Shown here: positions 3,792-24,431 of the stretch, one piece after another | How the letters are laid out: every line of letters starts with the position of its first letter | Numbering within the stretch: the first letter of the stretch is position 1 | DNA from: a virus | Lineage: Duplodnaviria; Caudoviricetes | Length of the DNA: 26,450 bases | Virus record (IMG/VR): IMGVR_UViG_3300034283_000651 | Span: 1 to 26,450 of that record | Direction: 5' to 3' (one strand) | Position numbers and translations under genes: made by a program | Notes under the pieces: model-generated | What the model was told of the DNA's origin: nothing | Databases searched by the model: none | Seen by the model: the letters and a program-made list of their open reading frames with translations, nothing else

Positions 3792-3953
3792 ATGAACAAA
3801 CCAGTTTTAACAATTAAACTTGGTCGCTCTGAATATAGTGTCGAATTCTTAAAAAGCGTAACTTTGAAAGAAGCGATTGAACATTTCGAACGGCTTGGTG
3901 TTCACGAAGGACAAATCCGAAACGCTTGGAAACGAGCAAACGGAAAAAAATAA
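3792..3953 (+). CDS. Small hypothetical protein (53 aa; not in ORF track)
   Basis: MNKPVLTIKLGRSEYSVEFLKSVTLKEAIEHFERLGVHEGQIRNAWKRANGKK*; fills the gap between the tail tube gene and a terminator. Confidence 0.75.
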   Translation: MNKPVLTIKLGRSEYSVEFLKSVTLKEAIEHFERLGVHEGQIRNAWKRANGKK

Positions 3954-4891: not shown

Positions 4892-7800
4892 ATGGCAAAG
4901 AAAATTTCAAAAATAGATATTGTTCAAGGTGACGTTTTAGCTGACTTGCGTTCGTCGCTTGAAAAAACAAAGGCACAAGGTGACCTTTTAAAAGCTTCTT
5001 TAATTGCCATTGACGAAGCAATGAAAAAACTGAAAGCTGACGCGAAAAGCTTGAAAGTTGACATTCAGAAAGTTGATCCGTCTGACACGAAACAACTGAA
5101 TGACTTAAACAACAAGCAACGCGAGGCAAATAAATTGTTGCTTGAACAAGAAAAAATTCGTCAGGCACAATTGAAAACCGAATTACAGATTGAACGCAAT
5201 AAACAAGCGCAAATTCGAACTGAAAAGTTGTTGAACAATGAAACGCAAAGAACAACTTCAGCTTACAAAGAACAATCAAAACTTTTAAATAAACTTCGTA
5301 ACGATTATAAAGACCTTGCTGTTCAAGAAAAAACGAACACAAAAGAGGCAAAGGATTTACTCGCGCAAATTACAAAGCTTGACGCTAAATTAAAAAACGT
5401 TGACGCTTCAGTCGGACAATACCAGCGAAATGTTGGAAACTATGGTTCGGCGTGGGAAGGTCTTAAAGGCAAATGGAAAAGTTTGGTTTCTGTTGCTGGT
5501 CAGCTTGGTCTTGCTGTCGGTGGCGCTCAAATTCTTCGAAGTTCAATTGACACAATAAAAGAATTCGGTCAATCAATCGCTGACCTTTCGGCAATTACTG
5601 GCGCTTCAGGTCCAGACCTTGAAAAATACAAGAAATCCGCAATTGAACTTGGAAAATCAACACAAGGCGGCGCAAAAGCTGTTGTTGAAGCGTTTAAACT
5701 TATTGGTTCGGCTAAACCTGAACTTCTTGAAAATGCTGACGCGTTAATTAAAGTTACTGAAGCGGCAAGAACATTGTCAAAAGCTTCAGGAAAGGAATTG
5801 CCTGACGCGGCAACGGCTTTAACTGACGCAATGAATCAGTTCGGCGCGTCGTCTGACGAAGCGGCTAAATTTATCAACGTTCTTGCCGCTGGTTCAAAAT
5901 TCGGCGCCGCTGAAATTCCGCAAGTAACGGAAGCATTGTTGAAATTTGGCGCTGTTTCAAAGGCGGCGAACGTAAGTATTGAAGAATCGACAGCTTTAAT
6001 TGAAGCACTCGCCGAACGCGGTTTAAAAGGTGCTGAAGCTGGAACGGCTTTGCGTAATGTCATGTTAAAACTTTCCGCACCTGACGCCTTGCCTAAAGAA
6101 GCAAAAGAACGTCTTGACGGACTTGGAATTTCATTTGCTGACCTTCAAGACAAAAGCAAACCATTTTCTGAACGCCTTAATGCCTTAAAACCATTACTAA
6201 ACGACAACGCCGCGCTTGTAAAGGTGTTTGGAATGGAAAACGCTGTTGCCGCAAGAAATTTAATTGATTCAACCGCAAGAATACAAGAATTAAATAAACA
6301 AGTAACTGGAACAGATACGGCTTTCAAACAAGCTGAAATTCGTTCAAAAACACTTGCTGAATCATTCAACACTTTAAAAGAAACTTGGAACGCTTACGTT
6401 TTAGGCGGTTCGGAAGGTCTTGACATGAATAACAGATTGATTTCTTCGTTAGATTTTCTTTCGAAAAATCTCGATACAATTGTAAATGCTTTAATTCGTG
6501 TCATTCGTTTATACATTGAATTTAAAGCGGTTCAACAAGCGTTAAAATTAAAGGAAAATTACGACGCTTGGAAGGCGCAAAAACAAGCAATCAAAGAAAC
6601 TGGTGAGGCTTTAGAAAAAGGTTCGGACAAAGCAAAAGCTTTTGGTACAGCTTTAAAATCAATCGGTTTTGCTATTGCAATTGATTTAGCTATTGAACTG
6701 GCGACTTCACTTGTAAAAGTTGCAAATGGTCACGCGTTCGCTGAAAATGCAATGATTTCTTACGAAAACACAAGAAAAGAAATTGCATTAAAAGTTAAAG
6801 CTGACAACGCTGAAACAAGTAAACAATTACTTGCTGAAAAAGAAAGAGTTGACAATCAAATAACATTATTGGAACGTGAAAGAACGCAACGAATAAAGAA
6901 CGGCGAAAGCGCAAAACAAGTAAACAAAGAAATTGATTCAAGTATTAAAAATTTGAATGAATCATTAAAGAAACAAGTTGTTGCGCGTGATCCTTTAGGA
7001 CTGACGGCTTTTGAAAGAAATAAAAACACAATATCAAACTACAAAAGTCAAATTTCACTTTTAAGAAATGAAATCAATCAACTTCAAGAAATTGAAAAGA
7101 AAGAAGGTACAAGTCGAAAAGCTGGAATTGCGGCGGCAAGGGAAAAAATAATTGTTCTTCAAGAAAACATAAAAGGTGTAATTGCTGACAATAAATTTAG
7201 ATTTGAATTACTTGAAAATTTGAATGAGGAAAATAATTTGACTGAAGCGAACACTTACGCACTTGAAGAAAATACAGACGAAGAAAAGAAAAATAAAAAA
7301 GCGAAAGAAGAAAAGGTTAAAACCATGAAAGACGCGAACGACGAAATAGAACGCATGGTTGACTTAATGAAACAGACGCAAGAATTAACAGACGAAATCG
7401 CACTTTATGAAGCTGAAGCCGACGTTCAAAGCGCGATTCAATCGCAACTGGATTCAATAAACGAAAGCGGTCAGTATTCAATTGATTTAATCAATCAAAG
7501 GATTGACGCTGAATATGAATTGAAGAAAGCAATCATTGAAAGAAACTTTCTTGAAGAAGTCGATTCAGCAACTACCGAAGACGAAGTTATTAACGCTGGA
7601 AAACGACGTTCTTTCGAACTTGGTAAACTTGAAAAGGAACGTGTTGACCTTAAAAAAGACGTGTACAAACAACTTGAAACAGCGCAAGAAGAACACGCCG
7701 ACAAAACGTTTCAACTGGATCAACAAGAAACTGAAGCACAAAAAGACGAATTAAAAAAACGCGCTGAAAATCAACAAAAATATATTGATTTCACGACGAA

Positions 7801-10438: not shown

Positions 10439-12680
10439 ATTTTACGATAACTTCGGCAATGGTCCTTTTACGTCGTATGTTTCAAATGCTGGTGACCAGT
10501 TCAGCGTTGTTCACACCTTGCACACGAATATTCGAATATCGAGTTTAACAAATCCATTGTTTCTCGATCCGTCAATTAATACAATTCAAAGTTCTTCGAT
10601 TTCATGGTTAACTGAAGGTTTTCGAGTTGACGATTTAGTTCGATTGACAATTTATGAATCAACTGGAACAATCGCCCACCAATGGACAACGGCTGTCACT
10701 TACGTTGACGATTTCATTCTTGACGTGAATTCCGTTCCTTATTGGTACAATTTAACCGCTGGTGAATTTATTGTTATTGAAGTAACGAATAGAAACCGCG
10801 ACGACCTTGACGTTTTATTTAACCATGTTCAAAACGCAACGACTGGAAATCAATTTTCGATTATTGACGGCGAAGCAACACGCGCGGTTTTCGTTGGTGT
10901 TGACGCTTTAGCCGTTAGCGCTAATTTACTTGGTTCGTTGGTTGGCAATCAGTCAGGTCAATTTCTTATTTCGGTTGAACTTGAACGACTTGCAAATCCG
11001 TTGACATATCAAAAAGCTTACGAAATAACGATTCAATTTGTTAATTCGGGAATATATTCACAAAGTTCATTTGACACGTCAGGCTGTCTTAAAACATACA
11101 CGCAAATACTTTGGTCCGCTTCAACTGGTGAACTTTCAAATCGTTTTTCTTTGGTCATTAATCCTGACGCAAATACTGGCTGGTTTAATCAACCGAACAA
11201 CACTTCAATTTTAGATTCTTCGCTTGTTCAAGGTATTTCAGAAATGGATTATTGCACAACAAAGCGTTACAAAGTTATCGTTGACGGACCTTTAACAGAT
11301 TTATCAATCGGTTCAGCTTACGTTTCACTTGACGAAACTTATTACAAAAACCAGCTTTCAAGTCAAAATAATTTGACAATGATTGTGCCGTCTGAAGACA
11401 TTCTTTCAGGTGATAAAACAAGTTACTCAAACAACAGCGGCGCACAATACGAAATTCAAAACATAACAATTGTAACGGCTGGAACTGAACACACAATCGA
11501 ATTCGATTTTGTGCCAAATGCACAATTCGACGCGTTTATGTCAGCGCGTGAAGTTGGCGACAGATTGTTTTATTTGTGGATAAAATGCGGCAATAGCAAT
11601 TTACTTGCATACGCTGACCAATTAACTTGTGAACCGCCAGTCGGTGCGCCTTTGTCAATGATTGATAAAACAGCTTATTTTGACCATTCAGAAAATATAA
11701 CAAGTCAAAGCGGCGTTCAAGAACAATTTGAATTTAATACTGAAGACGACCTTTCGTTTTATGGCACTTTCTTGTTGACAAAAGGCAATATTTACCAAAG
11801 CGTTCAAGCTGTCATTGAAGCTTACAATTCGACAACTGAAGACGCGTTTACTCTTTTGGAAGTAAACTTTAATTTTTCAGCGGCGCAAATTTCAGGCGAC
11901 GGAAGGTATTTGTTAAACGAAACGCAAAACGTTATTTCTTCATTACCGAACACTTCAGTAAAAAGAAACGCAACGCTTCAACTTGCGCCTTCGCTTGACA
12001 CAATGACCGATTACGGCGTTTCGGTTTATTTACCTTTTCTTTTGCGTTGGGAATATTGGTTGCAACAATTAAACGCCTCAACTGATTTTTACCCAAATCA
12101 AAATAAAAACTGGACACCTTACGACAATACTGGTGACTGGTCAACACGTCTTCGAATTACTTTAACTGACGATTTAACACATGACTTTGTTGAAGAAATA
12201 ACAATTAAAGATTACGACAGCGAACCAATAATTGACCAAACAATTGAACTTTACGTTGATTCAACAAACCAAAACGTTGGAATAGTTACCGAAGGTCAAT
12301 TAATGCGAGTTGTTGCGACACACACGCTTAACAACGCGACAGCTTGGAATCAATCGGAAATTTGGGGAATGATTACAATTGAACCTTTTGAAAGCGGTCA
12401 ACGTTGGATTCTTTCGTCGGTTGTTCCTTACGATAACAACGTAAATAACCCGCTTTATCCGTTGTCAGGTTCATTGATAAATATCAGTTATCCAACTAAT
12501 AACGTTGCGGTAATGGAATGTTTTTTTGATCCAACACGAATAAATTTAGAAAATGGTGTTAAATTTACTACAAAAATAAAAGGTTGCAACGACGCGCCTT
12601 TTATTATAATTGAAAAAACGACGACTGACGGCGACACAAAAACGACGACTGACGGCGACATTAAAACTTTAGCTTTGTAA
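10413..12680 (+). CDS. Large acidic beta-rich virion (tail-tip/baseplate) protein with C-terminal KTTTDG repeat
   Basis: 755 aa in the tail module, ending EKTTTDGDTKTTTDGDIKTLAL. Confidence 0.6.
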   Translation: MPVQLIKTEFYDNFGNGPFTSYVSNAGDQFSVVHTLHTNIRISSLTNPLFLDPSINTIQSSSISWLTEGFRVDDLVRLTIYESTGTIAHQWTTAVTYVDDFILDVNSVPYWYNLTAGEFIVIEVTNRNRDDLDVLFNHVQNATTGNQFSIIDGEATRAVFVGVDALAVSANLLGSLVGNQSGQFLISVELERLANPLTYQKAYEITIQFVNSGIYSQSSFDTSGCLKTYTQILWSASTGELSNRFSLVINPDANTGWFNQPNNTSILDSSLVQGISEMDYCTTKRYKVIVDGPLTDLSIGSAYVSLDETYYKNQLSSQNNLTMIVPSEDILSGDKTSYSNNSGAQYEIQNITIVTAGTEHTIEFDFVPNAQFDAFMSAREVGDRLFYLWIKCGNSNLLAYADQLTCEPPVGAPLSMIDKTAYFDHSENITSQSGVQEQFEFNTEDDLSFYGTFLLTKGNIYQSVQAVIEAYNSTTEDAFTLLEVNFNFSAAQISGDGRYLLNETQNVISSLPNTSVKRNATLQLAPSLDTMTDYGVSVYLPFLLRWEYWLQQLNASTDFYPNQNKNWTPYDNTGDWSTRLRITLTDDLTHDFVEEITIKDYDSEPIIDQTIELYVDSTNQNVGIVTEGQLMRVVATHTLNNATAWNQSEIWGMITIEPFESGQRWILSSVVPYDNNVNNPLYPLSGSLINISYPTNNVAVMECFFDPTRINLENGVKFTTKIKGCNDAPFIIIEKTTTDGDTKTTTDGDIKTLAL
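12614..12660 (+). repeat. 24-nt-period tandem duplication
   Basis: AAAAACGACGACTGACGGCGACA at 12614-12636 and 12638-12660; encodes KTTTDGD twice. Confidence 0.9.
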
Positions 12681-12681
12681 A

Positions 12682-12966
12682 ATGGAGAATGATTTAAGAA
12701 TTATTTCGGGCGGTGCTGGTTCATTTGTTTTAAATGACACGTCTGAATTTACTGGAAACTTTGACGCAATTGTTGTTCTTGAAGACACAATTATTGATTC
12801 AATAAAAATTGACGAAGTTGACGTAACTTCAGAATACATTTCAAACGCTTCAACGGCTGTTAAACTTGGTGCTATTATTCGACCAAAGAACCCGAATTCG
12901 TTCGATGTTCCGAACAAATTTAGTTCGGTTCAATTGTCTTCAGGTAGCGTTGTAATAGTTTTGTAA
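12682..12966 (+). CDS. Small beta-sandwich virion protein (possible fibre adaptor)
   Basis: 94 aa, alternating hydrophobic strands, ending FSSVQLSSGSVVIVL. Confidence 0.65.
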   Translation: MENDLRIISGGAGSFVLNDTSEFTGNFDAIVVLEDTIIDSIKIDEVDVTSEYISNASTAVKLGAIIRPKNPNSFDVPNKFSSVQLSSGSVVIVL

Positions 12967-12967
12967 T

Positions 12968-13114
12968 ATGTTTGGATTTTTTTACTCGGTTTTATATCCA
13001 ATTAAGTTTTTCGGCGGCGGTTCGACACCAGTCAATCCATTTGCCAAAACAACAACAACTGGTGAAAACAAAACCACAACTGACGGAATATTAAAAACAA
13101 GAACTTTAATTTAA
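12968..13114 (+). CDS. 48-aa micro-protein with aromatic N-terminus and KTTT(T/D)G repeats (not in ORF track)
   Basis: MFGFFYSVLYPIKFFGGGSTPVNPFAKTTTTGENKTTTDGILKTRTLI*; fills the gap exactly and shares a motif with the 755-aa protein. Confidence 0.75.
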   Translation: MFGFFYSVLYPIKFFGGGSTPVNPFAKTTTTGENKTTTDGILKTRTLI

Positions 13115-13120
13115 AAAAAA

Positions 13121-15385
13121 ATGGAAATTAACCAATACCCCCTCGAAAGTTTCGCGTTTCAAGACGAAGATTTTTATGACATTGATTTTTGGACTGGAAG
13201 CGGTTATCAAACGAAAAAAATACTTGGTTCAGTTATCAAAGCTGGAATTTTAGCGGCTGTTGAAAACATTTACAACGCTGACGGAAGTTTGAACGGAAAC
13301 AGAAGCGTTGATTTAGACGGAAATATTATTTCTTTTAATTCAATAAATGCTGGTGAATTTAACGCGCTTATTTCTGATTCAACAACTTCAACAAGTACGT
13401 TTAATCAAAGTATAGCACAAATTTATTTGTCTATTGTGGATATTTTGTCGCCTGACAAAGACGTTCAATTTGACATTAATACCACTAACACACAATTGGT
13501 ATTAAACGACGGATTAAATTCAACTTCGCTTCAAATAACAAACGTCGGTTCGGCTTTAAATTTTACTGATGGAATAACAAATTACCGAGTTGAAGCAAAT
13601 GAAAACGGCGTTATCATAAATACTTCGTACACATTACCAAATACCGACGGAACAGCTGGTCAAGTTTTAACAACTGACGGCGCTGGTGTCACTTCATGGC
13701 AAGACGGCGTAACGACGATTGTTTCTTGGGGTGACATTGTTGGAACACTTGCGGACCAAACTGACCTTCAAGCGGCACTTGACGCAAAATTAAATGATCC
13801 TGAAGGTATCGCGTCACAATACATTCGAGGCGACGGAACACTTGCTGACTTTCCAACTTTAACTGGTGGCGGTTCGGCTGTTTCACTTTATTTGAATGGC
13901 GGCGTTTCACAAGGCACAATTTTAGGCGGTCAATATTATCAACTTTCTAATATTGCAAATCTTGGACCGAGCGCTGACTTTATTCTAAATGCTGACGGAT
14001 TGATTGCACAATTCATTACTGACGTCAATGAACCGAATGTTATTAATATTCCAGCAGGAAACTGGCATACTGAATTTTATTTTAGCGCGTCTTCGGGCGG
14101 CGGTGTTCCGAACTTTTATTGTGAAATTTACAAATACGACGGAACAGCTTTCACGCTTCTTGGTAGCAATTCAACAAACCCGGAAAACATTGTTGGTTCG
14201 GCTGTTGATTTATATTATACCGCTGTTGCAATTCCTGAAACAACTTTAACACCAACGGACAGAATCGCAATTCGTGTTTTTATTTCACACGCTGGTCGAA
14301 CGATAACGTTACACACGCAAGACAATAACCTTTCTGAAGTTATAACAACAATTTCAACTGGTTTAACGGCTTTGAATGGTTTAACTGACCAAGTTCAATA
14401 TTTTCAAACTGGAACTTCAGGAACAAATTTCAATATCAGTTCTTCAGGTGACACGCATACGTTCAATGTTCCAACAGCTTCAGCGGCAAATACTGGAAAA
14501 TTAAGTAATTCAGACTGGTCAAATTTTGACGGAAAACAAGAACCAATTACTTTAACGACAACTGGAACTTCAGGCGCGGCAACTTTTGACGGAACGACGT
14601 TGAATGTACCTAACTATTCAACAACTGACACGAATATTTACAATACAAACGGAACGCTAACAGCAGACAGAACCGTCACAATGGATAATTTTTCATTGAC
14701 TTTTGACGGACTTGCTGGTGCTAACGGTACACAATTGAATTTAACAGCACCAAACCCAAACAGAAGCAAGGCGCTCAACTTTAAAGTAGGAACTCAACTT
14801 CGTTGGAAGCAACAAGTTTTAGGTTCTGAAATAGGCGGCGACAATGGAAGTCAGTTGTCAATGTCTTATTACGACGACGCTGGTGTTTTAAAAGGAACGG
14901 CATTTTCAATTTCAAGAACAAACGGCGCATTTAGATTAAACAACGCGTATAGTTTGCCAACGTCAGGTGGAACAACTGGACAAGTTCTAACAAGCACAAC
15001 TTTAGGTTTAACTGAATTTCAAGCATTGCCAGTTGAAATTCAAGCGGCGGCTTCAGACGAAACAACCAATTTAACTATTGGAACTTCAAAAGTTACTTTT
15101 CGTATGCCTCACGCGATGACATTGACGGCTGTTCGCGCTTCATTGTCAACGGCACAAGCCGCTGGTACTATTTTCACAATTGATATTAATCAAAACGGCG
15201 TTTCAGTTTTAGGTACTAAATTAACAATTGACAACAATGAAAAGACAAGTACAACCGCCGCAACACCAGCGACGATTGTTACAAGTTCTTTAACTGACGA
15301 CGCTGAAATAACTATTGACATTGACCAAGTTGGTACAGCTTTGGCAAAAGGTTTAAAAATTACTTTAATTGGAACAAGAGCATGA
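13121..15385 (+). CDS. Tail fibre protein, mosaic
   Basis: 754 aa, T/G/N-rich. Fibre motifs YTLPNTDGTAGQVLTTDG, WGDIVGTLADQTDLQAALDAK and SQYIRGDG; C-terminal beta-sandwich (SDETT...VTFRMP...IDIDQVG...GLKITLIG). Confidence 0.8.
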   Translation: MEINQYPLESFAFQDEDFYDIDFWTGSGYQTKKILGSVIKAGILAAVENIYNADGSLNGNRSVDLDGNIISFNSINAGEFNALISDSTTSTSTFNQSIAQIYLSIVDILSPDKDVQFDINTTNTQLVLNDGLNSTSLQITNVGSALNFTDGITNYRVEANENGVIINTSYTLPNTDGTAGQVLTTDGAGVTSWQDGVTTIVSWGDIVGTLADQTDLQAALDAKLNDPEGIASQYIRGDGTLADFPTLTGGGSAVSLYLNGGVSQGTILGGQYYQLSNIANLGPSADFILNADGLIAQFITDVNEPNVINIPAGNWHTEFYFSASSGGGVPNFYCEIYKYDGTAFTLLGSNSTNPENIVGSAVDLYYTAVAIPETTLTPTDRIAIRVFISHAGRTITLHTQDNNLSEVITTISTGLTALNGLTDQVQYFQTGTSGTNFNISSSGDTHTFNVPTASAANTGKLSNSDWSNFDGKQEPITLTTTGTSGAATFDGTTLNVPNYSTTDTNIYNTNGTLTADRTVTMDNFSLTFDGLAGANGTQLNLTAPNPNRSKALNFKVGTQLRWKQQVLGSEIGGDNGSQLSMSYYDDAGVLKGTAFSISRTNGAFRLNNAYSLPTSGGTTGQVLTSTTLGLTEFQALPVEIQAAASDETTNLTIGTSKVTFRMPHAMTLTAVRASLSTAQAAGTIFTIDINQNGVSVLGTKLTIDNNEKTSTTAATPATIVTSSLTDDAEITIDIDQVGTALAKGLKITLIGTRA

Positions 15386-17762: not shown

Positions 17763-17959
17763 AAGAACGCTGGAACGGAAAAACACCAAAATTTTGGAAA
17801 AAAATTCAAAGAATCGGTGTTGCTTGTGGTATTGTTGGCGCGGCAATTGTCAGCGCACCAATTGCGTTACCAGCCGCGATTGTTTCAGTTAGCGGTTATT
17901 TAATTGTCGCTGGATCGTTGACAGCCGCACTTTCACAATTAACAAAGGAAGACAAATGA
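17750..17959 (+). CDS. Probable holin (two TM segments)
   Basis: MLELKERWNGKTPKFWKK basic N-terminus, two hydrophobic segments, coupled to the endolysin. ATG 17750 is preferred over the TTG at 17654. Confidence 0.7.
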   Translation: MLELKERWNGKTPKFWKKIQRIGVACGIVGAAIVSAPIALPAAIVSVSGYLIVAGSLTAALSQLTKEDK

Positions 17960-18405
17960 ATTTAAGCGCACACGTTACAATTGCCGAATTCGAAAGAAGT
18001 GACATTGCAACGAAACATGGAATTTCTAACAAAATGAATTCAAGTCAAATTCAATTTGCTAAAGACTTGTGTGAAAATGTATTTGAAAAGATACGCGCAC
18101 ACGTTGGCGGTCCAATAAGAATTAACAGCGGTTATCGTTCACCAGCTGTCAACAGACGCGCGGGGGGTTCGGCTTCGAGTCAGCATTGTGCTTTAAATGG
18201 CGCGGCAATGGATTTAGACCTACATGACCGAGAACTTTTTAAATGGATTATTGCGAACGTTGAATTCGACCAAGCAATTTATGAGTTTGGAAACGATTCC
18301 AAAGCGCTTTGGTTTCATTTAAGCTACCGAAAAGGCAACAATCGATGTCAGGCATTACGCGCAATTAAAAAAGCTGGTAAAACGTCGTATATTCCATTTG
18401 TTTAA
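17956..18405 (+). CDS. Endolysin, peptidase M15A family (Zn D-Ala-D-Ala peptidase fold)
   Basis: INSGYRSPAVN..GGS..SQH, AMD and WFHLSY supply the H/D/H zinc ligands. Confidence 0.88.
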   Translation: MNLSAHVTIAEFERSDIATKHGISNKMNSSQIQFAKDLCENVFEKIRAHVGGPIRINSGYRSPAVNRRAGGSASSQHCALNGAAMDLDLHDRELFKWIIANVEFDQAIYEFGNDSKALWFHLSYRKGNNRCQALRAIKKAGKTSYIPFV

Positions 18406-18406
18406 T

Positions 18407-18481
18407 TACATTTGTTCAAGTCTTGCCAAGGACCTTACTAAAATGACCTAAAGAACCAACTTCAAAAGAGTTGGTTTTTTT
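18407..18481 (+). ncRNA. Candidate small RNA unit 1 (-7 box, GCCA hairpin, terminator)
   Basis: TACATTTG 18407-14; GTCTT-GCCA-AGGAC 18420-33; terminator 18450-81; no ORF. Confidence 0.45.
18450..18481 (+). terminator. Intrinsic terminator (also ends the late/lysis transcript)
   Basis: AACCAACT-tcaaaag-AGTTGGTT followed by a T run. Confidence 0.8.
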
Positions 18482-18484
18482 ATT

Positions 18485-18585
18485 TACCTTTGAATCGTTT
18501 TGTTTATAGTTTGAACGCCAGTTCGAATTGTGTTTAATTGTTAGATAAAAGAAAGTCGATTGAATTAATTTCAGTCGGCTTTTTT
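18485..18585 (+). ncRNA. Candidate small RNA unit 2 (-7 box, U/G-rich arms around a GCCA hairpin, terminator)
   Basis: TACCTTTG 18485-92; TAGTTTGAAC-GCCA-GTTCGAATTG 18507-30; terminator 18552-85; no ORF. Confidence 0.55.
18552..18585 (+). terminator. Intrinsic terminator
   Basis: AAAGTCGATTGAA / TTCAGTCGGCTTT stem with G-U pairs, running into a T6 tract (18580-85). Confidence 0.8.
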
Positions 18586-18625
18586 ATTGACCGAAAAAAA
18601 AATTAAAAAAAATTGTGCAAAAGTG

Positions 18626-18667
18626 TTGTTAATTAAAAAACTTGCATATCTTTGTAAGGTCAATAAG
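18626..18667 (+). promoter_or_regulatory. Bacteroidota-type early promoter with downstream conserved box
   Basis: TTG(18626-28)-N18-TATCTTTG(18647-54), then TAAGGTCAATAAG. Confidence 0.75.
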
Positions 18668-18691
18668 GCACAAAACAAAAACAAAACAACA

Positions 18692-18781
18692 ATGAAACAA
18701 AATCAACACTTCGAAATGACAGCGGCTTTTTTAATGGGCGCGTCAATTATTTTATCAATCATTTATTTAGCAACAATTTAA
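18692..18781 (+). CDS. 29-aa single-TM micro-protein, first early gene
   Basis: MKQNQHFEMTAAFLMGASIILSIIYLATI*; ATG after an A/C-rich leader. The ORF-track start at 18587 runs through the promoter. Confidence 0.6.
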   Translation: MKQNQHFEMTAAFLMGASIILSIIYLATI

Positions 18782-18791
18782 TTTAAACACC

Positions 18792-19124
18792 ATGACAACA
18801 AAACACCAAGTGATCCAGTTAATCGTTGACCTTTCACAAGACAACGAACAAATGACAAAAAGTATTTTAGGCAAAGCGGTTGTTGACGGCGCAAAAGAAG
18901 CTTTAAATTCAACGCCTGACATTAAAACTTTGAAAATCATTACTGAAACAATTACGTTTTTAGTAAAATGTATTGAAGACCTTCAGCAAGAACTTCGCGA
19001 AATGAAAGCGCACAACGAAAAAGCTGGTGTTATGTTCGTTCACCGCGACCAAGACATTCAAGGCGTTGAACGATTAATCAACAAATACTACGAAAGTTTA
19101 AATAAAGTAATTCGTGAAATATGA
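18792..19124 (+). CDS. Hypothetical helical protein
   Basis: 110-aa ORF with a good leader. Confidence 0.75.
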   Translation: MTTKHQVIQLIVDLSQDNEQMTKSILGKAVVDGAKEALNSTPDIKTLKIITETITFLVKCIEDLQQELREMKAHNEKAGVMFVHRDQDIQGVERLINKYYESLNKVIREI

Positions 19125-20684: not shown

Positions 20685-20727
20685 TTTGTTTGTAATTAAA
20701 TTTAATTACATTTGTAAGGTCAATAAG
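20685..20727 (+). promoter_or_regulatory. Bacteroidota-type promoter with the same downstream box
   Basis: TTTG(20685-88)-N18-TACATTTG(20707-14), then TAAGGTCAATAAG. Confidence 0.78.
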
Positions 20728-22822: not shown

Positions 22823-22830
22823 TATATTTG
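22823..22830 (+). promoter_or_regulatory. -7 promoter element upstream of the replication-gene leader
   Basis: TATATTTG matches TAnnTTTG; no well-spaced -33 TTG seen. Confidence 0.55.
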
Positions 22831-22834
22831 CAAA

Positions 22835-22928
22835 AGTTACGCTTCGACAATATAGTAACTGAAAATATTATTGCCTGATTAATTGAACGCGAAGTCGAAG
22901 CCGCAAGTAAATTGGTCAGGCTTTTTTT
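22835..22928 (+). ncRNA. Structured leader RNA: two hairpins with complementary loops, ending in a U tract
   Basis: P1 AGTTAC/GTAACT with loop containing GCTTCGAC; P2 GCCTGATTAATT/AATTGGTCAGGC with apical GTCGAAGC; T7 at 22922-28. Confidence 0.7.
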
Positions 22929-22945
22929 ATTTAATTTTTTAACAA

Positions 22946-23755
22946 ATGGCAAACCGAATATTACGCGACTGGACATTTTCTGAAAACGTTGACGCGCTGA
23001 ATTTTGAAGCTGAAGTTTTCTTTACGCGTTTGATAATGAAAGCTGACGATTTTGGTTGTTTTCATGGAAACCCAAAACTTTTAAAAGCGGCGTTATTTCC
23101 GCTGAAAGAAATTAAACAATCAATTGTTGAAAAAATGCTGAACGATTGCGTCGAAGCTGGAATAATTATTTTATACGAAGTTGATTCAAAAAAATATTTA
23201 AAGATTGTCGACTTTGGTCAACGTTTGCGCACAATGAACAGCAAATTTCCGCAACTTGACAGCAACGCGCGGACAATTGTCAGCAATGCGCCGCTTGAAG
23301 TAGAAAGAAACGAAGTAGAAGTAGAAGAAGAAACGAAGAAGAATAAAGTCGCTTCGCTTCAAAAATCTTTTTCTTTTAAAAATGAACTTTTGAATTTAAA
23401 CTTTGACGAACAACTTGTTGACGAATGGCTGTCAATCCGTAAATCAAAAAAAGCAAAGAATACTGAAACCGCTTTGAAAGCTTTTATTCGTGAAATAAAA
23501 AAATCAAATTTACCAGCAAATGAAATTTTGCAAATTTGCGTCGAAAGAAGCTGGTCAGGTTTCGACGCGTCTTGGATCAATAATTTAAACACAAACAAAA
23601 ATGGAAACACACAACAACCAATTAACAACGAAGAACGAAAGCGAAGCTATATTGAAAGAGTTCTTTACGGAAATAATGAACCAGTTGACAGCCAAAGGTC
23701 ACACAATGGCGAAGATAACAGCACCTTTGATGCTGTCGAAATCGTCGAAAGTTGA
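22946..23755 (+). CDS. Phage replication initiator / replisome-organiser-like protein
   Basis: N-terminal wHTH-like L..EAEVFFTRLIMKADDFG...LFP segment, charged linker EVEVEEE, and C-terminal EWLSIRK.KKA...ERSWSGF domain typical of phage initiators. Confidence 0.7.
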   Translation: MANRILRDWTFSENVDALNFEAEVFFTRLIMKADDFGCFHGNPKLLKAALFPLKEIKQSIVEKMLNDCVEAGIIILYEVDSKKYLKIVDFGQRLRTMNSKFPQLDSNARTIVSNAPLEVERNEVEVEEETKKNKVASLQKSFSFKNELLNLNFDEQLVDEWLSIRKSKKAKNTETALKAFIREIKKSNLPANEILQICVERSWSGFDASWINNLNTNKNGNTQQPINNEERKRSYIERVLYGNNEPVDSQRSHNGEDNSTFDAVEIVES

Positions 23756-24378: not shown

Positions 24379-24408
24379 TTTGATATTAATTAAGTTTAAT
24401 TATCTTTG
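24379..24408 (+). promoter_or_regulatory. Bacteroidota-type promoter for the recombination operon
   Basis: TTTG(24379-82)-N18-TATCTTTG(24401-08). Confidence 0.75.
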
Positions 24409-24431
24409 CTGAAACAATTAAACAAAACGAC

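Follow-up and report, generated by a model that had tools for sequence, protein, structure and literature searches.

A conserved candidate small RNA at the late/early gene junction of a tailed phage with predicted pairing to early translation starts of its own genome

The window analyzed here, a stretch of 26,450 nucleotides, is a tailed-phage fragment in which every called gene lies on the plus strand. A late block comprising the capsid, tape measure and endolysin genes is followed by an early block coding for methylases, a replication initiator, RecT and an exonuclease. The endolysin (17956 to 18405, plus strand), a peptidase M15 (Pfam PF08291, E = 2e-16; phrog_894, E = 9e-36), is the final gene of the late block. 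We found no similar DNA in annotated phages, among which the closest capsids were those of Flavobacterium phages (34% identity), with the cultured Flavobacterium phage snusmum6-1 as the nearest capsid relative (34%). Intergenic TAnnTTTG boxes sit ahead of A-rich leaders throughout the window and, together with the capsid matches, suggest that the host is likely a Bacteroidota bacterium. In this phylum, translation begins on A-rich leaders and does without Shine-Dalgarno pairing, which means that a single U/G-rich RNA can in principle reach many genes.

The 290-base gap between the endolysin and the first early gene contains three TAnnTTTG boxes, at positions 18407, 18485 and 18647, the last of which (18647 to 18654, plus strand) belongs to the first early operon. 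The second one, TACCTTTG (18485 to 18492, plus strand), is the -7 box of the small RNA unit that the initial annotation had placed here. It matches the motif by sequence and is identical in relatives L001 to L004 and in five metagenome relatives. The box alone is weak evidence, with 20 copies on the plus strand and 19 on the minus strand of the window, and the reported lack of a clear -33 element was borne out, as no TTTG occurs 19 to 21 bases upstream. According to supplement file 4 of PMC11697453, the Bacteroides RNA FopS-10 begins four bases past its box, and the +1 of the window RNA was therefore put at G18497. This inferred start receives some support from the four spacer bases, which differ between relatives (AATC, ATTC, AAAC), while G18497 and the following bases are kept. 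The predicted RNA of approximately 90 nt (18497 to 18588, plus strand) would consist of arm 1 (GUUUUGUUUAUAG, 18497 to 18509), a seed resembling that of FopS and the R1 region of GibS, an internal hairpin with a GCCA loop (18508 to 18529), arm 2 (starting with GUGUUUAAUUGUUAGAUA, 18530 to 18550), and an intrinsic-terminator-like hairpin followed by a U run (18549 to 18588), the stem of which is kept in L004 with an altered loop. Both the internal hairpin and the terminator (18549 to 18585) folded as described in the initial annotation. Hairpin and terminator together gave a z-score of -6.0 (none of 200 shuffles as good; -1.7 for the minus strand), a signal coming mostly from the terminator. 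At the DNA level, the unit is a genuine feature. A small minus-strand ORF starting from the mirrored AUG was also considered and rejected: the window has ATA at this position, and in true relatives the length ranges from 4 to 37 codons, in differing frames.

Directly upstream lies another small unit (18407 to 18484, plus strand), made of a TACATTTG box, a short hairpin also carrying a GCCA loop and a terminator (18450 to 18480), and its 5' part is kept in L003 and L004. This terminator would in addition stop transcription coming from the late genes and shield the RNA gene. No convincing target was found for the upstream unit in its own genome (best own start, -11.2), and a role as antisense to GTAAGGTC at early promoters was rejected, since the motif is mostly located before the inferred +1 and L003 has no mirror copy. 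Units of this second type (18407 to 18484 in the window, about 7680 to 7755 in L169, 3175 to 3200 in L014) consist of a terminator preceded by a short hairpin whose loop varies. In L169 to L172 such a unit occurs by itself; in the window clade it precedes the RNA, and in clade B it is joined to the 5' end of the anti-start RNA. No own-genome target was found for the loops. The early promoters at 18654 to 18667 and 20714 to 20727 share GTAAGGTCAATAAG around +1, which also heads early operons in L007, L026 and L169 to L172 and is possibly an operator or an initiation signal.

The complete arrangement of box, two arms, hairpin and terminator was found in nine relatives, namely L001 to L004 (4 of 80 endolysin loci) and L157, L159, L163, L164 and L165, the last five coming from 10 metagenome pattern matches. 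Variation is confined to the four-base spacer and the loops, with the stems kept, and the arms are better conserved than loops and spacer. Between the window and L004, one of the 13 bases of arm 1 differs (UAU versus CAU, either of which can pair with AUG), and arm 2 shows no difference over its first 18 bases. The hairpin of L003 and L004 has one compensatory U-A to C-G change and one U-G to U-A change; because the hairpin form is known in two sequence types only, these changes are given as an observation with no statistic. The loop reads CCAGUU in L003 and L004, which rules out GCCA as a conserved signal and answers in the negative the loop conservation check put forward in the initial annotation. 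As to its second comparative check, arm/leader covariation, no two-sided arm/target change was seen among relatives, the arms being invariant. More distant homologues of gene 18792, the target discussed below, are present in L169 to L173 (32 to 38% identity); they lack the matching leader, and the four with a readable junction carry another small-unit type, hence they provide no covariation test. Pattern scans for further hairpin forms (7, 18, and 10 matches) returned nothing but chance matches outside the known clade.

In distant phages, units lacking the internal hairpin are placed downstream of the endolysin and immediately ahead of the first early promoter; each runs from a box through a U/G-rich body, containing TTTTCATAG or a variant of it, to a terminator. 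A sequence-only family model from 15 of these hairpin-less units matched 43 of 80 endolysin-related loci, once each and on the same strand, although 13 of these matches are training sequences and many others near-duplicates. In whole genomes, the model found one copy in each of the six matching genomes and no match in nine others, including one with the hairpin form. Overall, six clades keep the box, an unstructured U/G-rich body and the terminator at the junction, with differing sequences. Read in reverse complement, the family body corresponds to a Bacteroidota start region with its AUG. When the family core was scanned over GTDB, the three matches obtained were all real Bacteroidota gene starts on the opposite strand (142, 106, and 505 aa). 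The window RNA is tied to the hairpin-less family by its position, by TTYATAG and by a shared 14-mer (18532 to 18545), which across 546 kb from 18 phage genomes is confined to clade A and clade B junction RNAs and was absent from 400 kb of host DNA. Family model R1, representing the hairpin-less units, matched neither the window RNA nor phage snusmum6-1, and a seed profile of the hairpin-less relatives missed the window RNA even after in silico removal of its hairpin. Judging from these sequence features, common ancestry of the window RNA and the family is likely, with convergence as the possible alternative. In L127 (about 5835 to 5960, minus strand), a family anti-start unit without TAnnTTTG box lies directly behind a tRNA-like sequence, so it may be excised from the tRNA transcript.

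To rank the predicted targets, the RNA body (18497 to 18550) was cofolded with positions -35 to +20 of 35 starts in the window, taking the ViennaRNA dimer energy minus both monomer energies. Gene 18792 reached -17.0 kcal/mol, followed by 24432 (-11.1), 23601 (-10.6), 18692 (-10.2), 20752 (-9.5), and recT (-4.2), while the best of the 20 late starts was at -7.3. With mononucleotide shuffles, the best site was equaled in 1 of 200 cases and the early-minus-late difference in none of 200, in line with the preference for early starts that the initial annotation had implied for the predicted RNA. Dinucleotide shuffles reached the -17.0 of the 18792 site in 3 of 600 cases, 14 of 600 being as good when the best of 15 starts was taken, and 83 of 600 matched the five best window targets jointly. 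Without 18792, the remaining targets were equal to dinucleotide shuffles (248/600), and individually their energies were reached in 156 (23601), 70 (24432), 130 (20752), 168 (18692), and 531 (recT) of 600 shuffles. The ranking in the initial annotation, which had put 23601 and 24432 first and also listed 20752, 18692 and recT, was consequently overturned: these hybrids are no better than dinucleotide shuffles, and gene 18792, listed there as a minor target, alone stands apart from them.

The exact matches behind that ranking are nevertheless real. Joined together, TTTTGTTT (18498 to 18505) and GTGTTTAA (18530 to 18537) are the exact complement of the 16 nt leader of ORF 23601 (23585 to 23600, plus strand). 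Likewise, 18495 to 18506 complements 24419 to 24430 and 18531 to 18542 complements 24413 to 24424, both in the leader of gene 24432 (24413 to 24430, plus strand; own box at 24401 to 24408), which also has an exact 16-nt two-arm match; with +1 at G18497, the first two bases of the match to 24419 to 24430 would be untranscribed. Dinucleotide-shuffled arms gave one such 16-mer in 37 of 1,000 cases and two in none of 1,000. However, when the same arms were compared with 15 phage genomes of other clades, G005 gave two 16-mers and G162 and G163 one each, so that the exact matches exceed shuffled arms but not these natural controls. The 23601 match is retained in nine other loci and absent in L094 and in the L004 group (L004, L095, L096); the arms of the L004 RNA are nearly unchanged although the match is gone, and we consider ORF 23601 a weak candidate. 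The 24432 leader is mostly retained in relatives, and this gene is a possible, if generic, secondary target. ORF 23601 itself overlaps the end of the replication-initiator gene by 155 bases (23601 to 23755) in another frame, an overlap kept in L001, L002 and L004.

A separate conserved element was observed in the leader of the replication-initiator gene 22946 (22823 to 22932), where the CTTCGAC loop of a 5' hairpin is complementary to part of the loop of a terminator-like hairpin. Across five aligned copies, four of the eight pairs show two-sided changes. Variants of this leader are present in L018, L021, L030, L037 and L040, and a similar one in Flavobacterium phage snusmum6-1. It has no Rfam match and looks like a conserved kissing-loop or attenuator element.

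The best predicted target site (18762 to 18804, plus strand) covers the end of a 29-aa hydrophobic ORF (18692 to 18781, plus strand), the leader TTAAACAC (18783 to 18790), the start at 18792 and the first codons. It was the best of 1,760 plus-strand windows, with a non-start site near 3871 (-15.8) close to its energy. In the predicted duplex, arm 2 pairs with 18762 to 18773 and 18783 to 18790 and arm 1 with 18797 to 18804, within codons 2 to 5, with the hairpin between the arms looped out. With full-length RNA and longer native targets the gain fell to -11.2 and -14.6, the geometry being unchanged. The 110-aa gene (18792 to 19124, plus strand), likely the main target, starts 200 bases downstream of the RNA unit and has 14 homologues; no Pfam family over cut-off, PHROG family or Atlas match was found for its product. 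TTAAACAC, to which the arm-2 core is complementary, has two plus-strand copies in the window and two copies in the complete relative G002, always before an early start codon. It was counted at 7 of 64 clade-A early starts, versus 3 of 434 early starts in the other tabulated groups and 1 of 312 host starts, counts in which homologous starts are included repeatedly.

The predicted target takes in the final 20 bases of the 29-aa ORF, all of which agree between the window and L004 (20/20), compared with 19 of 40 bases in the middle of the ORF. In L006 and L008, the same YLATI end is written with different codons beside a different junction RNA, a single contrast. An inserted 70-aa gene follows the small ORF in L003 and L004, and the start of this gene is the best site (-13.9), while the 110-aa gene retains a weaker two-arm site over its AUG (-11.2). 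Type I toxins are small and hydrophobic, as is the 29-aa peptide, and what is conserved in the paired region is the end of the small ORF, even if another gene follows, as with the 70-aa gene of L003 and L004. One might thus propose that the RNA is a type I antitoxin-like partner that pairs with the 3' end of this ORF and limits a membrane-active product. We find this reading very improbable indeed: pairing at the start of the peptide itself is not above shuffles (168/600), the duplex is centered on the next start codon, L006 and L008 carry the peptide beside a different RNA, and the peptide has no family match. Small hydrophobic ORFs of 29 to 34 aa take first or second place among the early genes of three clades, as seen in the window, L006, L008 and the L024-L058 group. 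They have no family match and are candidates for membrane-active exclusion peptides. The slot behind the first early promoter (18655 to 18692) is occupied by a differing, unrelated gene in six relatives (L002, L003, L157, L159, L163, and L165), behind which the 29-aa ORF and the 110-aa gene are constant, indicating a gene-swap hot spot.

Ten junction RNAs from six clades were compared with the starts in 18 genomes, 452 of them early and 392 late; gene starts were taken by a simple rule, early ones being those from the junction to the terminase, or within the first 8 kb if no terminase was found. By the mean of the three best sites, the own genome ranked 1, 5, 1, 3, 1, 4, 1, 3, 5, and 1 among 16 to 18 genomes. 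Taking the worst member per clade, own early starts ranked high in five of six statistics (p = 0.002 to 0.02; p = 0.087 for the sixth, the raw mean), whereas own late starts were not preferred (p = 0.36 to 0.99). Self-preference was weak for G159 and G005, with ranks of up to 9 and 14. The best site of the window RNA in 15 other-clade genomes was at -13.2, and the top four of 878 start regions from 40 loci were the 18792 junction in its own clade. The L004 RNA reached -13.9 in its own genome (rank 4 of 16), less favorable than in three genomes of other clades (-14.2 to -14.3 in two, -16.2 in the third), and it has no exact match longer than 12 nt in its own early starts. All ten RNAs favor early over late starts whatever the phage, therefore a good part of the pairing is generic. 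Clades with different hosts could also differ in leader style, which would be an alternative source of self-preference.

Such generic pairing brings up the question of whether the RNA is rather a broad anti-start damper of host mRNAs, for example of surface transporters as FopS is, or of co-infecting phages, with the fit to own genes being a by-product of shared leader style. FopS targets SusC-type mRNAs, the GTDB matches of the family core are all opposite-strand Bacteroidota gene starts, and predicted pairing with early starts of unrelated phages is seen for every RNA. On the other hand, self-preference holds for early and not for late starts, and among 312 starts in 400 kb of a 6.2-Mb Aquimarina genome, a stand-in from which the true host may differ, none reached the best own site for four of five RNAs and one did for the fifth. 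For the window RNA the minimum was -12.8. A few equally good sites could be present in the whole genome of the true host; as the main role of the RNA, we regard this broader action as unlikely.

Self-preference would also be accounted for by an inverted copy of the nearby start region, and the unit might then be a second late/early terminator or insulator derived from such a copy, kept for termination only and without any role in trans. The dominance of the terminator in the fold signal is compatible with this proposal, as is the chance frequency of TAnnTTTG boxes (39 in the window). Nevertheless, another terminator (18450 to 18480) is already present directly upstream, the arms are conserved above loops and spacer, the internal hairpin is kept through compensatory change, and six clades keep box, unstructured U/G-rich body and terminator in spite of differing sequences. 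A purely terminating role thus appears quite unlikely. The claim of the initial annotation that this is a stand-alone small RNA gene stood up to these comparisons: the unit is conserved, with arms that flank a looped-out hairpin and are predicted to be antisense to early start regions.

The CI RNA of P4 is a small phage antisense RNA that blocks translation of its own gene, and the c4 and CI RNAs are processed out of the leader of the operon that they control. The window RNA has its own predicted promoter and terminator ahead of an early promoter, which sets it apart from c4. Moreover, the pairing elements of c4 and P4 CI are in loops, whereas those of the window RNA flank a hairpin with a varying loop, and c4 and CI lie in the immunity region of a temperate phage (antirepressor or kil operon), whereas no antirepressor, repressor or integrase family was found among the 36 window proteins. 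No match to the Rfam C4 families was obtained in the whole window (E ≤ 5) or in a local search (E ≤ 10). As described in PMC12197685, c4 of P1/P7 blocks translation of its own ant mRNA near the ribosome-binding site, and its phage-specific pairing leads to heteroimmunity. The P1 C4/P4 CI model offered in the initial annotation has in common with the window unit a small phage RNA, here predicted to pair at a start region of its own genome, but the host RNAs FopS and GibS, which are anti-start-codon RNAs, are closer.

GibS and FopS repress by start-codon pairing in Bacteroides without Shine-Dalgarno pairing (PMC7366714; PMC11697453; bioRxiv 10.1101/2023.12.22.572801), and a FopS copy in one Caudovirales phage has already been published (PMC11697453). 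As reported there for B. thetaiotaomicron, FopS (Rfam RF04319) has a TAnnTTTG (sigma-ABfr) promoter, with which the box at 18485 to 18492 agrees by sequence, and an equally long U/G-rich 5' seed ending in YAUAG, then UUUAA...UUA...UAAAA and a terminator, with pairing around the start codon. The 5' end of the window RNA shares 10 of 13 bases with the start of FopS-10 and GibS (11 of 13 in L004, with CAU), a low-complexity likeness for which convergence on the anti-start consensus is possible. GibS, as described in PMC7366714, resembles the window RNA in having two seed regions (R1 and R2) that act at the translation-initiation region without Shine-Dalgarno pairing and a long AU-rich single-stranded seed. 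It differs in being a host metabolic regulator with another promoter type, and no Rfam or sequence match extends past the R1-like start. The terminator is the only structure of FopS, whereas the window and L004 RNAs have an internal hairpin in the seed (clades C, D and G have none), and the window RNA has UAU in place of the CAU of FopS. FopS is present in 12 to 15 copies per Bacteroidaceae genome by the published account, unlike the single-copy junction RNA (6/6 matching genomes), and targets host SusC mRNAs rather than, as predicted here, own early genes from a late/early junction.

The Rfam check advised in the initial annotation returned no meaningful family for the window RNA, which was not among the 21 matches at E ≤ 10 (18390 to 18700). 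Against the FopS cut-off of 56 bits, the best scores were those of the hairpin-less relatives L014 (28.1) and G003 (30.3), which are not members; none of five records exceeded the cut-off in the G003 search, five further loci had no FopS match at E ≤ 0.5, and a strict FopS-like pattern was found in 1 of 151 Flavobacteriales genomes. The similar 5' ends of the window RNA and FopS/GibS, which bind RbpB via a like 5' region, are compatible with a decoy for a host RNA-binding protein (an RbpB-like RRM protein or ribosomal protein bS1) or a competitor of host FopS-like RNAs. We judge this very unlikely, as it leaves the clade-specific fit to own early starts unexplained, anti-AUG register would not be needed, and no FopS match over cut-off was found in three non-gut Bacteroidota genomes. 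The candidate would work like FopS and GibS and serve a c4-like purpose, yet it falls outside both families.

Taken together, layout, conservation and complementarity that tracks the early starts of the same phage are supported by the data. The reading we prefer, to which we give about an even chance, is that of a trans-acting antisense damper of early-gene translation, acting chiefly on gene 18792. A stable 90-nt RNA would be made from its own host-type promoter, and its two arms would pair over the translation start of own early genes, chiefly 18792, thereby blocking ribosome loading. In this duplex, arm 2 would lie on the leader and the preceding end of the 29-aa ORF, with the hairpin standing out beside the AUG and arm 1 covering the first codons. 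Weaker pairing might damp other A/C-rich early leaders (24432, 18692), and a block at the second gene of the first early operon may be polar on the genes behind it. As the RNA unit and the early genes share one promoter type, the RNA would accumulate with time and genome copy number and exert a delayed negative feedback on early expression; incoming close relatives would be damped as well. The initial annotation had also considered RNA-based immunity, for which gene content gives no support: integrase, repressor and antirepressor families had no match among the 36 window proteins, where divergent ones could escape, or among 25 proteins of the complete relative G002, the structural half of which was not separately scanned. 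On these grounds lysogenic immunity is unsupported, and a timer or kin-exclusion role would fit better. In G002 (L181), the portal gene (12252 to 13457) is on the minus strand of an otherwise one-stranded genome, reflecting an inversion or an assembly artefact.

Our literature search found no self-targeting RNA like this one for Bacteroidota phages, most subscription journals being beyond its reach, and many-gene anti-start RNAs have so far been documented for host RNAs (GibS, FopS). More speculatively, and with considerable doubt, a widespread group of small Bacteroidota phages lacking a protein repressor might combine early shut-off and kin exclusion in one FopS-like RNA at the late/early junction, its seed retuned in each clade and, here, split into two arms by a hairpin. 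A phage-borne family at a fixed position, with seeds following the leaders of each clade, would, if true, amount to a protein-free timer or exclusion system and hint at the transfer of FopS-like RNAs between phages and hosts. The junction RNAs are also natural seed/target pairs on which the rules of antisense pairing in Bacteroidota may be tested.
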